Positions 35,949 through 40,488 of a stretch of DNA of 49,093 bases are shown here, in pieces. The first letter of the stretch is position 1. The number at the start of each line of letters is the position of its first letter. A program made the translations under genes and the position numbers. The stretch is from positions 1 through 49,093 of IMG/VR virus record IMGVR_UViG_2718218136_000007. One strand, 5' to 3'. The stretch comes from a virus (lineage: Duplodnaviria; Heunggongvirae; Uroviricota; Caudoviricetes). The notes under the pieces were generated by a model that did no database searches, had not been told where the DNA came from, and was given only the letters and a program-made list of their open reading frames with translations.

Positions 35949-36181
35949 GCTGCACCTCCGAGATGCTTCATGTTTTTTCCGGAGCGAAAGGTTATAAGCG
36001 GCATACTGACGCGGTAATTACGGCCCAGCGGTTCACAAATCACCTTCTGACATTCACGGTCAACCAGGCTAACACGTAGAACATGCCCTGCAGGCGTGGT
36101 GTACCACTGCCCAACTGTAGGAATTGATGTTTTTTTACGCTGAAATAAACGGTAAATGTTGAGGATCAACGGATTAAGCAT
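35945..36181 (-). CDS. Hypothetical protein (78 aa)
   Basis: ORF only; stop overlaps the replication gene start. Confidence 0.35.
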   Translation of the reverse strand: MLNPLILNIYRLFQRKKTSIPTVGQWYTTPAGHVLRVSLVDRECQKVICEPLGRNYRVSMPLITFRSGKNMKHLGGAA

Positions 36182-37010
36182 GACGATGCCCTCCGCTGAT
36201 ATTCAGGAGACGGTGAATATGAAAATTAGCCTTATCCGCCAGACGAATACGTTCAGCCTGCAAGTTAATAAGGGTTTCTACCAGAACCTGATGCGCCTGC
36301 GGATCCGAAAGAGTTACCTTGCGCAGAGCACGTAGTGCAGTTGTTACATAACTGAGTTTATGTAAGTCTTCATCATTCAGACGAGTGAGGGCTGGGACAG
36401 TAGCCATGATGGCAGCCTCCTTGATCGGTGAAATACTTCCACCACCGGAAACGCCAATTTCGCTGGTGGTGAACTGAACGGGGTTGGCGTAACCGGTGAT
36501 CAAGGAAACCGGCGCATCTTTCGATGCCCCCGCCCAGCCCACCATAACTTTGATGTGAGCAAATGCGGACGATAAAAAAGACGCTGGCGCGTCATATATC
36601 GCCTTGATCAATTCCAGGACGCCAATCCCGGCACCCGCTTTATAAGGTGCCTGAACAGTGTAACGTCCCGGAATGGCAGAATCAATGTGCTGGTGGTCCT
36701 TCACACTCAACAAAATCACGCCTGAATTTCCACAAAGGACTAAAGCACTCATGCGGGTAGTCTTTGCGAAGATAGATAACGCGCTGTGTTTCTGGTTCCC
36801 AACGAATAACATGGACATAAAGCCCTCTTCCGTCACGAAACCAGCGGTTAAGTTCCCGCACAACTCGCCCCCCACAGTCAGGTAAAGTTCTCTGTGGTTA
36901 CTTACAGCCAGGTGATTTGGTAATCTGCATTCATGCCGTAACAACAGGTGTTCAGCGACACTGACCACCAGCTGTTGCGACAAACGGTTATTTGCCGTTA
37001 AACTGTTCAT
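36174..37010 (-). CDS. Hypothetical protein (278 aa)
   Basis: ORF in operon context between the cII-like and replication genes; no family recognised by eye. Confidence 0.45.
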   Translation of the reverse strand: MNSLTANNRLSQQLVVSVAEHLLLRHECRLPNHLAVSNHRELYLTVGGELCGNLTAGFVTEEGFMSMLFVGNQKHSALSIFAKTTRMSALVLCGNSGVILLSVKDHQHIDSAIPGRYTVQAPYKAGAGIGVLELIKAIYDAPASFLSSAFAHIKVMVGWAGASKDAPVSLITGYANPVQFTTSEIGVSGGGSISPIKEAAIMATVPALTRLNDEDLHKLSYVTTALRALRKVTLSDPQAHQVLVETLINLQAERIRLADKANFHIHRLLNISGGHRHA

Positions 37011-37570
37011 GCGTTAGTTTCTCCACAGACACAAAACGCCACGACGCCCGGAGCTGCACACTCGCGGGCGTCACTCTTTTCTGGAGCGCAAAAGATTTTG
37101 TAGACCAGTGCTGCATGCTCTTGGAGCTTCGAAATTGACAGATACAACTCATCATTAATTGCTGTCTGCTCGTGTGGCTCCACGACCCCATCTTCGATTG
37201 CCGAACGAATCTGCTTTGAGTAATTCCCGATCTGTTCGATGACTTCCAGCAGGCGCTGGTTTATATCGGCGTTCTCTACTTCCTCAATTTCAGGAAGCGA
37301 TACGAACACCCCACCAGCAGACTGTGCGACAGCATCCGCAATGTAGTGAGTGCCAGCCGCGCGCTGTAAAACCATTGCCCATCCCAGCGGGAAAATCTGA
37401 TCGCCATCGGCACGAAGGCGGTTAAATAATGCGTTCTCTGTTACATCCAGCCAGTCAGCTGCTTCAGCGTAACCACCCGGCAACGCTGCGATAGTTTTTC
37501 TGACAGCTTTCACGTACCACTCAGGCTGTTTTTCTACTTTCCAGTGATACTTACCCACGGTTAGCCTCAT
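37007..37570 (-). CDS. Putative CII-like regulatory protein (phage 186 CII / CP76-like)
   Basis: 187 aa immediately downstream of cro-like gene; loose similarity in organisation to the 186 CII family; weak. Confidence 0.4.
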   Translation of the reverse strand: MRLTVGKYHWKVEKQPEWYVKAVRKTIAALPGGYAEAADWLDVTENALFNRLRADGDQIFPLGWAMVLQRAAGTHYIADAVAQSAGGVFVSLPEIEEVENADINQRLLEVIEQIGNYSKQIRSAIEDGVVEPHEQTAINDELYLSISKLQEHAALVYKIFCAPEKSDARECAAPGVVAFCVCGETNA

Positions 37571-37601
37571 CGTTCTGTGGTTAAAAATTGAAGGTGTTCT
37601 G

Positions 37602-37802
37602 TTAATCTTTCGGATAGATATCCGGTCTTAAGTCAGATTTCGTAATTGCACCTGACGTGCATTGCTCAAGTTTTTTCGCCAGCACAAAACTGGCTTTTTT
37701 ATAACCATTGAAAACCAGCCGTAAGTAGCCAGGTGTTGAGCCAACTTTTCCGGCCAACTCGCCCTGCTGTTCTTTGGTTAAAGAGTCCCAATACGCTTTC
37801 AT
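37602..37802 (-). CDS. Cro-like repressor (66 aa HTH)
   Basis: MKAYWDSLTKEQQGELAGKVGSTPGYLRLVFNGYKKASFVLAKKLEQCTSG... HTH; ATG at 37802 with GGAGG 9 nt upstream; divergent from cI-like gene; track ORF extends upstream. Confidence 0.75.
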   Translation of the reverse strand: MKAYWDSLTKEQQGELAGKVGSTPGYLRLVFNGYKKASFVLAKKLEQCTSGAITKSDLRPDIYPKD

Positions 37803-37807
37803 ACAAT

Positions 37808-37886
37808 ATGTACCTCCGATATACATATTACATGATTGAAATGAACCTTCAAGATACTTGTACCTTATCGGTACAAAGGTTTTAAT
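37808..37886. promoter_or_regulatory. Right operator/promoter region: two 7-5-7 palindromic operators plus candidate pR and pRM
   Basis: O-a ATGTACC-tccga-TATACAT (37808-37826); O-b TTGTACC-ttatc-GGTACAA (37858-37876); pR on minus strand -35 TTGAAG (37852-37847), -10 TAATAT (37830-37825); pRM on plus strand -35 TTGTAC (37858-37863), -10 TTTAAT (37881-37886), implying a nearly leaderless cI mRNA. Confidence 0.55.
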
Positions 37887-37892
37887 TTCGTT

Positions 37893-38567
37893 ATGAAAAC
37901 AATCCATGACATCCGGCGGTCTAACGCCAGAAAACTGAGAGATGGTGTTGGCGGGAATTCTTCCTTTGCCACCATGATTGATCGCGAGCCAACCCAGACC
38001 AGCAGGTTTATGGGAGATGGTGCTACTAAAAATATCGGTGACAGCATGGCGCGGCACATCGAAAAATGTTTCGACCTGCCTGTCGGATGGCTTGATCAAG
38101 AACACCAGACCACGAACATCACAAAAAAACCTGATGTTTCAATCACTAACAAACAAATAACGTTAGTCCCTGTCATATCATGGGTACAGGCCGGAGCATG
38201 GAAAGAAGTTGGCTATTCTGAGGTTGATTTGAGCACAGCAGAAACTTACCCCTGCCCTGTACCCTGTGGCGAAATGACTTATATCTTGCGGGTGATTGGT
38301 GATTCAATGATTGATGAGTACCGCCCTGGAGACATGATTTTTGTTGATCCCGAAGTCCCTGCCTGCCACGGTGACGACGTTATTGCATTGATGCACGATA
38401 CAGGCGAAACCACCTTCAAGCGATTGATAGAAGATGGAACACAGCGTTATCTCAAAGCATTAAACCCAAACTGGCCTGAGCCTTACATTAAGATTAACGG
38501 TAATTGCTCTATAATTGGTACAGTGATTTTCTCGGGAAAACCAAGAAGATACACAATAAAGGCCTAA
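37893..38567 (+). CDS. CI-like prophage repressor (HTH plus S24 LexA-like autopeptidase domain)
   Basis: 224 aa; C-terminal ILRVIGDSMIDEYRPGDMIFVDPE with Ser in GDSM and downstream Lys, typical S24 dyad; divergent from cro. Confidence 0.85.
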   Translation: MKTIHDIRRSNARKLRDGVGGNSSFATMIDREPTQTSRFMGDGATKNIGDSMARHIEKCFDLPVGWLDQEHQTTNITKKPDVSITNKQITLVPVISWVQAGAWKEVGYSEVDLSTAETYPCPVPCGEMTYILRVIGDSMIDEYRPGDMIFVDPEVPACHGDDVIALMHDTGETTFKRLIEDGTQRYLKALNPNWPEPYIKINGNCSIIGTVIFSGKPRRYTIKA

Positions 38568-38606
38568 TCAATATTTATGAATCTGCTTCGGCAGGTTTTT
38601 TTATAC

Positions 38607-38634
38607 TTGACAATGTACCCATGAGATACATAAT
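38607..38634 (+). promoter_or_regulatory. Candidate pL promoter (-35 TTGACA, 16-bp spacer, -10 CATAAT) with overlapping operator palindrome ATGTACC-catga-GATACAT
   Basis: TTGACA at 38607-38612, CATAAT at 38629-38634; operator at 38613-38631 shares the half-site with the oR operators. Confidence 0.55.
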
Positions 38635-39053
38635 GTATCCAAAAGAAACATGAGGCAGGCAAGATTCAAACAAAATTTGGTTGTAACACGGCGTATGGCA
38701 CATGCGTCGTTAGCGGTCTGGGGACGTTAAAGGGGACAATCCACTTCTTGCTCGGGCAAACAAACCAGGTAGCCGGAATGTGCAAGTCAATGATGATGCT
38801 GATAAGACGCCTAACCAGCGTGGCGATCCGGTTTGACGCCTGGGAAGAGACCAGGGTGCAACGATGAGGGCATTTATAGAGCCGCGACAAAGTGTGGTGC
38901 CGTAACTGGCTAAGTGCTCTCAGCGTTGTGGTAATCCGCGAAATGGCGCGGCGGTAAGTATGGCGGGGTTACTCTTTCCCCGTTGAGGACACCGGATTGT
39001 CAGGTTGACCATACGCCTGAGTGACAACCCCACCACAACAGCCACTGCTTTGG

Positions 39054-39099
39054 CGGTACCAGTTTGTACACTTGCTTCCGGCTGGTACCGCTCTTTTTA
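39054..39099 (+). terminator. Terminator-like hairpin in the pL leader (perfect 9-bp stem CGGTACCAG/CTGGTACCG, 19-nt loop, then CTCTTTTT); overlaps a boxA-like CGCTCTTTTTA
   Basis: Stem arms 39054-39062 and 39082-39090; T-run 39093-39098; followed by a long imperfect hairpin 39100-39186. Confidence 0.4.
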
Positions 39100-39235
39100 C
39101 AAAATAGAGAAGAGCATCACCGGACGACGGGCTCATAACCCAATCCATCCGGGCGGCTGCCACCGCAGGTGTTCTTCTCTGTTTTGTGGAGAAACCAACC
39201 GACCTTGCAGGGTCGATATGATGAGGAGCAGCAAA

Positions 39236-39598
39236 ATGGCTAGCGAACGCAGTACTGATGTGCAGGCATTTATCGGGGAGCTGGACGGCGGCGTATTTGA
39301 AACCAAAATCGGCGCAGTTCTCAGTGAAGTCGCTTCCGGTGTGATGAACACGAAAACCAAAGGTAAGGTCTCACTCAACCTGGAAATCGAACCATTTGAT
39401 GAGAACCGTGTGAAAATCAAACACAAACTCTCATATGTTCGCCCGACTAACCGCGGGAAAATTTCCGAAGAAGACACCACCGAAACGCCGATGTATGTCA
39501 ATCGCGGTGGTCGCCTGACTATTCTGCAGGAAGACCAGGGACAATTACTGACTCTTGCCGGTGAACCTGACGGAAAACTACGCGCAGCAGGTCATTAA
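39236..39598 (+). CDS. yfdP: YfdP-like protein (120 aa)
   Basis: MASERSTDVQAFIGELDGGVFETKIGAVLSEV...; GAGGAG 6 nt upstream; first gene of a yfdP-yfdQ-yfdR-yfdS array as in prophage CPS-53. Confidence 0.7.
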   Translation: MASERSTDVQAFIGELDGGVFETKIGAVLSEVASGVMNTKTKGKVSLNLEIEPFDENRVKIKHKLSYVRPTNRGKISEEDTTETPMYVNRGGRLTILQEDQGQLLTLAGEPDGKLRAAGH

Positions 39599-39663
39599 TA
39601 TCGTTCTTAATTAACTGATTATTTATCTCATCACTGAATATCTTTATATAGTGAGGACTTATT

Positions 39664-40488
39664 ATGTCTCAGAACTTAGACGCAACCGCAATTAATCAAA
39701 TCCATGCCCTTATTTCTGCTCAGGGTGTTAATGAAATTATCAGTAATATTGGTGCCGATGCTGTGGCATTGCCTGAGAATTTCCGCATTCATGATCTGGA
39801 AAAATTTAATTTAAATCGCTTCCGTTTCCGTGGTGCGCTTTCCACTGCCAGCATCGATGACTTTACCCGTTATTCTAAAGATCTTGCAGATGAAGGCACC
39901 CGCTGCTTTATCGATGCTGATAATATGCGTGCCGTCAGTGTACTTAACCTGGGTACTATTGATGAACCAGGTCACGCAGATAACACCGCCACTCTCAAAC
40001 TGAAAAAGACAGCACCGTTCTCTGCCCTGTTGTCTGTTAACGGCGAGCGTAACTCCCAGAAGTCACTGGCAGAATGGATTGAAGACTGGGCCGACTACCT
40101 TGTGGGCTTTGATGCTAATGGTGACGCTATTCAGGCAACAAAAGCGGCTGCGGCAGTCCGTAAAATCACGATTGAAGCAAACCAGACCGCTGATTTTGAA
40201 GATAATGACTTCAGCGGCAAACGCTCCCTGATGGAGTCTGTCGAAGCGAAGACCAAAGACATTATGCCAGTGGCATTTGAATTTAAATGCGTTCCGTTTG
40301 AAGGTCTGAAAGAACGTCCGTTTAAATTACGCCTCAGCATTATCACTGGCGATCGTCCTGTACTGGTTCTGCGCATTATTCAGCTGGAGGCGGTGCAGGA
40401 AGAAATGGCTAACGAATTTCGTGATCTGCTTGTTGAGAAATTCAAGGACAGCAAAGTAGAAACCTTTATTGGTACTTTCACCGCCTGA
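39664..40488 (+). CDS. yfdQ: YfdQ-like protein (DUF2303)
   Basis: 274 aa, same length and gene neighbourhood as E. coli YfdQ. Confidence 0.7.

Follow-up and report, generated by a model that had tools for sequence, protein, structure and literature searches.

Five palindromic sites around a cI-like gene are best explained as the OR and OL operators of an e14/SfV-type lambdoid immunity region

The window, i.e. the whole stretch of 49,093 nucleotides that was analysed, contains five palindromic sites around a cI-like repressor gene. Very probably, they are the OR and OL operators of a lambdoid immunity region of the e14/SfV type, which is the best explanation for their sequence, position and conservation. 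The palindromes are almost certainly binding sites of the CI-type repressor of the prophage, as judged from sequence comparison. The region as such is already known, since its operator stretch was annotated in GenBank as early as 2002, and its detection here is a rediscovery. A literature search for published DNA-binding experiments on the YmfK/CI-type repressor (YmfK/CohE) or the Cro protein of the e14/SfV type, which also covered the half-site sequence, found none.

Operator sites

The first-pass annotation of this DNA had proposed three operators built as 7-5-7 palindromes, two of them between the divergent cro and cI genes and one overlapping the spacer of pL. All three palindromes were found (37808-37826, 37858-37876 and 38613-38631) and this layout was confirmed from the sequence. 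The three sites are real, but two additional weaker ones had been overlooked, so that the total is five:

Operator A, 37808-37826, no strand: ATGTACC-TCCGA-TATACAT; spans the predicted pR start together with the Shine-Dalgarno sequence of cro (CCTCC, 37813-37817)
Operator M, 37841-37859, no strand: ATGAACC-TTCAA-GATACTT; weaker, with two mismatches; centred on the pR -35
Operator B, 37858-37876, no strand: TTGTACC-TTATC-GGTACAA; a perfect palindrome
Operator OL1, 38613-38631, no strand: ATGTACC-CATGA-GATACAT; fills the pL spacer and overlaps the pL -10
Operator OL2, 38633-38651, no strand: ATGTATC-CAAAA-GAAACAT; one mismatch; lies over the predicted pL start

The region had been given as starting at 37803, which is the first intergenic base; the cro ATG itself occupies 37800-37802. 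M shares 2 bp with B, and the centres of the two sites are 17 bp apart (16 in Pseudomonas phages). OL2 begins 1 bp after OL1 with a centre-to-centre distance of 20 bp. The left half of B is at the same time the -35 hexamer of pRM (TTGTAC, 37858-37863).

The pattern WTGTAYC-N5-GRTACAW was matched exactly twice in the 49-kb window, compared to 0.00 expected matches. With up to two mismatches, five matches were counted against 0.96 expected, a number that was reached in none of 100 shuffles. A search for the half-site motif elsewhere in the prophage had been suggested as a check; all five matches were confined to 37808-38651 and the remainder of the 49 kb contained zero.

Genes of the region

The sites lie next to and between the following features:

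cro-like gene, 37602..37802, minus strand: 66 amino acids, homologue of ymfT and SfV cro (open reading frame and translation)
cI-like repressor gene, 37893..38567, plus strand: 224 amino acids, homologue of ymfK and SfV cI (open reading frame, Peptidase_S24)
Rho-independent terminator after cI, 38579..38606, plus strand: terminator scan; annotated in Ayreon and SfV

The cro-like gene diverges from cI at a distance of 90 bp and its homologue is named cro in the SfV record. Its product is 100% identical to the Cro proteins of SfV and Ayreon, and it gave weak matches to the Pfam models YdaS_toxin and HTH_3, both below the curated cut-offs. The gene beside it (37007-37570) encodes a CII protein of the phage 186 type (Phage_CP76) and is followed by one for an Ash-family protein.

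According to its sequence, the CI-like protein is composed of a helix-turn-helix N-domain and a LexA-like self-cleaving C-domain. Peptidase_S24 was matched at residues 93-212 with an E-value of 1.5e-26, and the C-terminal domain is 35% identical to the one of lambda CI. In an alignment with the lambda CI sequence, the motifs VQAG, GDSM and FKRL were placed on the Ala111-Gly112 cleavage site, Ser149 and Lys192, respectively. The N-terminal 75 residues gave zero matches to the Pfam HTH models and the N-domain showed no significant sequence match to the one of lambda CI. A profile of the N-domain matched SPC32H Rep (5d50; E 3.6e-9, residues 1-74) as well as other phage CI N-domains. SPC32H Rep is thereby the closest solved relative of the DNA-binding domain. 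It differs in its C-terminal part and is inactivated by an antirepressor, whereas the protein of the window has the S24 self-cleavage domain.

The stem of the terminator after cI showed compensatory changes among relatives. An Rfam scan of 37500-39700 gave no relevant match.

Promoters and the leaderless start of cI

Apart from pRM, the promoters are predictions. The promoter scan was run with a threshold of 9/12; pR and pRM fell below it and were assigned by hand and by conservation.

pR -10, 37825..37830, minus strand: TAATAT; predicted, read from the sequence
pR -35, 37847..37852, minus strand: TTGAAG; predicted, 16-nt spacer to the -10
pRM -10, 37881..37886, plus strand: TTTAAT; ends 6 nt before the cI ATG
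pL-like promoter, 38607..38634, plus strand: TTGACA-16-CATAAT; 11/12, hexamers at 38607-38612 and 38629-38634

The candidate pR matches the consensus at 8/12 positions and is absent from the listing of the promoter scan. Its assignment was made by inference, and transcription from it would begin 1-3 nt upstream of the Shine-Dalgarno sequence of cro. In most Enterobacterales regions, TAATAT or CATAAT was found at the same position as the -10, and the -35 follows TTGnnG in relatives (TTGCAG in EPP-1 and TTGACG in Pseudomonas phage CF3a). The pL-like promoter is annotated as a promoter in the Ayreon record.

The pRM promoter reads TTGTAC (37858-63), a spacer of 17, TTTAAT (37881-86), 6 nt and then the ATG, which confirms the earlier observation on the distance between its -10 and the cI start. 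A very similar geometry was observed in Edwardsiella phage EPP-1 (TTGTAC-17-TCTAAT-7-ATG) and in Pseudomonas phage CF3a (CTGTAC-17-TGGAAT-6-ATG). Nearly all Enterobacterales and Pseudomonas-phage relatives have a -10 of the form xxxAAT, mostly xxTAAT, 6-7 nt before the ATG. The leaderless cI mRNA that had been deduced from this distance is backed by published data. In E. coli MG1655, only five leaderless mRNAs were found by dRNA-seq and ymfK is one of them (Romero et al. 2014, PMC4681348). A supplementary table of that study places the start site of ymfK on the gene's first base, which is the A of its ATG, and lists a leader length of 0 nt. Since the K-12 sequence upstream of ymfK aligned identically to the window at pRM and the cI start, the prediction has experimental support.

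Conservation of the sites among relatives

A comparison with related immunity regions had likewise been suggested as a check. Relatives were gathered by tblastn with the CI N-domain and by scanning species-representative genomes with an N-domain alignment, and they ranged from 100% to 35% identity. On the A/M/B side, 29 distinct cI-cro regions were compared, which came from E. coli, Atlantibacter, Leclercia, Pantoea, Klebsiella, Kluyvera, Serratia, Rahnella, Erwinia, Edwardsiella, Rosenbergiella, Salinicola and Pseudomonas phages. The half-sites TGTACC/GGTACA, their spacing and their positions were kept in this set, while the 5-bp centres drifted.

Measured from the cI ATG, site A lay at -85/-86 in the regions of Enterobacterales and Pseudomonas phages (-88 in Halomonadaceae) and site B at -35/-36. 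Both sites recur in Pseudomonas phages and Halomonadaceae, in which the CI N-domains are 50-60% identical. Most loci of Enterobacterales had site M at -52/-53 with not more than two mismatches, and the ATGAACC 'defect' recurred in it. The 2-bp overlap of M and B was kept from E. coli to Edwardsiella, and over the same range OL1 and OL2 recur at +720 and +740 from the cI start.

In B, the half-site columns had a mean information content of 1.82 bits over 23 distinct OR sequences from Enterobacterales, compared to 0.35 bits for the 5-bp centre. The half-site means were 1.72 bits for A and 1.64 bits for M. When A and B were pooled, the half-site (A/T)-T-G-T-A-C-C was nearly invariant at T2 (91/92), G3 (92/92), T4 (92/92) and A5 (90/92). 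The conservation of A's centre is due to the cro Shine-Dalgarno sequence (CCTCC) and not necessarily to the repressor. Part of the conservation of M could, in the same way, be that of the pR -35 itself.

On the OL side, OL1 was present with varying 5-bp centres in 24 distinct Enterobacterales relatives, and the pL hexamers TTGACA/CATAAT were invariant in all of them. The order was terminator, TTGACA, OL1 in the spacer, CATAAT overlapping the right half of OL1, and OL2. The latter lay exactly 20 bp past OL1, with a conserved left half ATGTACC and a degenerate right half. The arrangement TTGACA-TGTACC after cI was absent from the Pseudomonas phages and the Halomonadaceae prophages, and thus the conservation of OL is limited to Enterobacterales. 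Taken from these alignments, the interpretation of the palindromes as operators of a CI/Cro switch is supported.

Half-sites and recognition helices

Distant CI N-domains with another recognition helix also have 6-N5-6 palindromes upstream, with other half-sites:

TGTACC group: recognition helix EPTQxSR; TGTACC-N5-GGTACA
Acinetobacter: recognition helix GQSQxSQ; ATTACC-N5-GGTAAT
Rugamonas: TTTACC/GATAAA
H-19B: TTTACC-ATTTT-GATAAA and also TTTATC-CATTT-GCTAAA
Crenothrix: GTTACC-N5-GGTAAC

The N-domain of the H-19B cI product is 41% identical to the one of the window and the palindromes of its cI-cro region have the same 6-N5-6 architecture. They differ in the half-site (TTTACC instead of TGTACC), and N, cII and cIII of H-19B are of the lambda type. 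A search for published data on the H-19B operators was without result. At the Acinetobacter loci, no homologue of the window's Cro was detected, so these loci argue for the CI N-domain as the determinant of specificity. The covariation points to a CI N-domain that determines the specificity for the half-site. A 6-N5-6 grammar of the type xxTACC, in which the two outer bases track the helix, could represent a simple code of immunity specificity across Proteobacteria.

Other explanations for the palindromes

It was considered that the palindromes are bound by the host LexA and not by the repressor of the prophage. The sites contain TGT and ACA and in this respect resemble SOS boxes. In addition, the induction of e14 genes by DNA damage (AZT) was blocked by the non-cleavable LexA variant lexA3 in a study from 2024, i.e. 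it depends on LexA cleavage, and it was ascribed there to weak LexA boxes without considering the YmfK operators. However, CTGT-N8-ACAG is absent from OR and OL even when one mismatch is allowed, and the nearest matches of this type (36892 and 36972) are located inside the Ash-like gene. The distance between TGT and ACA is 11 bp in the sites described here and 8 bp in a LexA box. Moreover, LexA boxes do not vary within Gammaproteobacteria, while the half-site differs between taxa in step with the CI N-domain, which makes binding by LexA extremely unlikely. An origin as RNA hairpins, i.e. terminators or attenuators instead of protein-binding sites, is hardly credible. The terminator scan did list site B (37858-37876), which is followed by a T-rich stretch, but the stems of the palindromes are kept in sequence with zero compensatory changes, unlike the terminator after cI. 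The same half-site also occurs at five places, one of them inside a promoter spacer. Since compensatory variation is absent and the DNA before site B contains no end of a plus-strand gene, B was ruled out as a terminator.

A further possibility is that genuine operators are limited to B, OL1 and, perhaps, A, while M and OL2 are by-products of promoter elements, namely the pR -35 and the region of the pL start. M deviates from the pattern at two positions, the CAA conserved in its centre corresponds to the TTG of the pR -35, and many relatives have a degenerate right half of OL2. On the other hand, the halves of M (ATGAACC/GGTACTT) are conserved beyond what a -35 needs, including the T-to-A 'defect' that is shared across genera. 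Likewise, the left half ATGTACC of OL2 is nearly invariant and its spacing to OL1 is fixed at 20 bp. A set restricted to the strong sites is thus improbable, if less so than the two explanations above. The main protein to bind the sites might also be the Cro-like one or a different early regulator, namely the CP76-type CII or the Ash-family protein. A Cro homologue is encoded beside every TGTACC-type cI, and the CII-like and Ash-like genes adjoin cro. Nevertheless, the 6-N5-6 xTACC architecture persists in Acinetobacter, where the Cro homologue was undetected, and several loci with the sites, including the ones of Pseudomonas phages and Edwardsiella EPP-1, lack a CP76 homologue. To our knowledge, operators are common to CI and Cro in every lambdoid switch that has been studied. 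Recognition mainly by a regulator other than CI is consequently very unlikely. Still, a comparison among close relatives, in which cI and cro always occur jointly, separates binding by CI from binding by Cro only in part.

Proposed switch

A CI-like dimer would probably bind the 19-bp sites, which have the half-site (A/T)TGTAC(C) and 5 bp between the halves, and the Cro-like protein would probably use the same sites. The assignment of a protein to each single site, the order of occupancy and any cooperativity belong to the model that we infer from the layout, as do activation through M and the exact starts of pR and pL. In the lysogen, CI would occupy A, M, OL1 and OL2 and thereby switch off pR and pL, with A and M blocking pR, while cI would be transcribed from pRM as a leaderless mRNA. 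B covers the -35 and the spacer of pRM. Its occupation, by CI at high concentration or by Cro, would switch pRM off. Finally, self-cleavage of CI stimulated by RecA would derepress the prophage.

Relative to the cI start (37893), the centres of the OR sites are at -26 (B), -43 (M) and -76 (A). With the predicted pR start as the reference, the centres of A and M are at approximately +1 and -31, respectively. A and M are 33 bp or approximately three helical turns apart and would thus lie on the same face of the DNA. In lambda, OR2 is positioned at -42 relative to pRM. M is placed similarly (∼-43 from the cI start) and may accordingly be a site from which pRM is activated. The lambda-like promoter geometry that the first-pass annotation had described was borne out, and it becomes even more lambda-like when M, which lies on the pR -35, is added.

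Given their overlap, M and B may not be occupied at the same time. It is conceivable, though unlikely, that A and M (pRM on) and B (pRM off) constitute a mutually exclusive toggle, different from the graded occupancy of OR2 and OR3 in lambda, together with a half-site code that extends across Proteobacteria.

Relation to e14, SfV and lambda

The region had been described as an immunity type that is not the one of lambda. This holds true, but the type is already known as e14/SfV and the operator stretch is annotated in the SfV record. Positions 37000-39300 are 98-99% identical to the phages Ayreon, 2H10 and cdtI and to a number of Stx2c phages, and 97% identical to Shigella phage SfV over 83% of the length. 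Among the 5426 complete E. coli genomes of RefSeq, 1323 contain the region, with 95-99.9% DNA identity. The two genes go by the names of ymfK (LexA family protein) and ymfT (YdaS-family HTH) in these genomes; in K-12, ymfK and ymfT are the repressor and cro genes of the cryptic prophage e14. A feature termed "putative operator region" in the SfV GenBank record U82619 corresponds exactly to 37808-37876 of the window and hence spans the first base of operator A to the last base of operator B.

In e14 and SfV, OR and OL are ∼98% identical to the window and all five sites and three promoters are shared. In an abstract by Mehta, Casjens and Krishnaswamy from 2004, the repressor and Cro binding sites of e14 were reportedly identified by similarity to SfV. 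The CI N-domains (residues 1-96) of SfV, SfIV, Ayreon and 2H10 are 99-100% identical to the one of the window. The window, e14 and SfV differ in few substitutions, mostly within the 5-bp centres; the right half of operator A reads TGTACAT in e14 and TATACAT in the window. Just past OL2, at ∼38652-38660, the homology to both e14 and SfV ends, so that the early-left leader of the window is a different mosaic piece.

The region resembles lambda in its divergent cro and cI genes, the three-part OR that overlaps pR and pRM, the operators at a pL downstream of cI and the leaderless cI mRNA. Further similarities are the one site at ∼-43 from the cI start (OR2 at -42) and the C-terminal domain with its 35% identity and aligned Ala-Gly cleavage site, Ser and Lys. 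By contrast, the sites are 19 bp long (7-5-7) with a TGTACC half-site, while those of lambda have 17 bp. Two OL sites were found instead of three, and the OR spacings are 33 and 17 bp compared to ∼24 and 23 bp. The last two OR sites, M and B, overlap by 2 bp, and the perfect palindrome is B and not the site proximal to pR. Cro is a YdaS-like HTH protein and the CII-like protein is of the CP76 type of phage 186. SfV-like phages are described as lacking N in the SfIV paper.

The e14/SfV immunity type is present in about a quarter of the complete E. coli genomes, including K-12 with e14, and also in cdt phages, Stx2c phages and serotype-converting phages that resemble SfV. Knowing the recognition sequence of its repressor would predict which of these prophages are homo-immune and would explain the induction of e14 by DNA damage without weak LexA boxes. 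The switch itself is an ordinary lambdoid one and leaves the general understanding of lambdoid switches unaffected.

A structured RNA in the pL leader

An unannotated conserved structured RNA was observed at 39093-39192 in the pL leader, after a terminator at ∼39053-39098, and it may merit treatment as a separate finding. Its minimum free energy is -56.6 kcal/mol (z = -6.75 compared to shuffles). No Rfam family was matched, even at E-values up to 10, and ARAGORN detected no tRNA in the window. The predicted fold is a three-way junction with a closing stem of 25 bp and a second hairpin of variable length. Compensatory changes were seen in 8 of 33 predicted pairs among 15 diverse copies, and the core was present in at least 120 IMG/VR contigs. 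RNAs of this type are located upstream of a yfdP-like first early-left gene in phages of different immunity types (SfV, ST64B and mEp460), and in Klebsiella phages directly after two tRNA genes downstream of Q. One hairpin carries the tip GGGCUCAUAACCC, which reads like the anticodon stem-loop of the initiator tRNA.

Mosaic structure of the prophage

The identity of the window to e14 and SfV ended at a mosaic junction at about 38652-38660, directly after OL2, the second of two predicted operators at the pL-like promoter. In place of the leader found in the window, e14, SfV and ST64B share the leader start GAACAGGCAGGACGCCCACGAAGTAG. The cI of ST64B is HK022-like. Given this loss of identity after OL2 and the leader start common to the three, OL2 seems to mark the left boundary of the immunity module in such exchanges. 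In the first half of the window (1-25000) lie lambda-like head and tail genes that are about 98% identical to those of phages Kati, PhiR34_1 and mEp332. As these structural genes occur together with an e14/SfV immunity module, the window is a mosaic lambdoid prophage.

Beyond cro, two further genes follow:

37007-37570, minus strand, Phage_CP76 family protein gene (phage 186 CII type; E 1.2e-14), next after cro

36174-37010, Ash-family protein gene, next after the Phage_CP76 gene

SfV-like phages lack CII according to the SfIV genome paper.

Structured RNA in the pL leader

The pL leader contains an unannotated, conserved structured RNA just 5' of the first early-left ORF:

about 39053-39098, terminator preceding the structured RNA

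39093-39192, plus strand, structured RNA

The RNA folds into a three-way junction closed by a stem of 25 bp, with an MFE of -56.6 kcal/mol (z = -6.75). One hairpin is invariant and carries the tip GGGCUCAUAACCC, which resembles the initiator-tRNA anticodon stem-loop, and the other is variable in length. Compensatory changes were observed at 8 of the 33 predicted pairs among 15 diverse copies, and the core was present in at least 120 viral contigs. The element had no match in Rfam 15, was not called as a tRNA by tRNA prediction, and a literature search found no paper containing its sequence. It occurs in two contexts, namely, in the pL leaders of SfV/ST64B/mEp460-like phages and, in Klebsiella phages, downstream of Q, where it immediately follows two tRNA genes (tRNA-Asn and tRNA-Arg).

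Candidate operators of distant repressor relatives

Upstream of distant homologues of the repressor N-domain, 6-N5-6 palindromes with the half-sites ATTACC, TTTACC or GTTACC were found (loci L039, L042, L043 and L047-L049 from Acinetobacter; L038, L050, L178 (H-19B)). These half-sites suggest that the whole family follows one grammar, xxTACC-N5-GGTAxx, with outer bases that vary according to the recognition helix. No OL of the TGTACC type (half-site (A/T)TGTACC) was detected downstream of the homologous cI in Pseudomonas phage vB_Pae_CF3a (L004). In place of such an OL, this phage has two copies of CTGTATATACA(G/A) about 45 bp apart (L004 2327-2385), CTGTATATACAG first and then CTGTATATACAA.

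LexA-box-like sites

A near-consensus LexA box overlaps the start of a methyltransferase-like ORF:

30052-30067, LexA box ACTGTTTATTTTTACAGTA, overlapping the first codons of the ORF

29025-30077, minus strand, DNA methyltransferase-like ORF (350 aa)

Over the whole window, CTGT-N8-ACAG with at most one mismatch occurred 33 times versus 16.7 expected, an about twofold excess.
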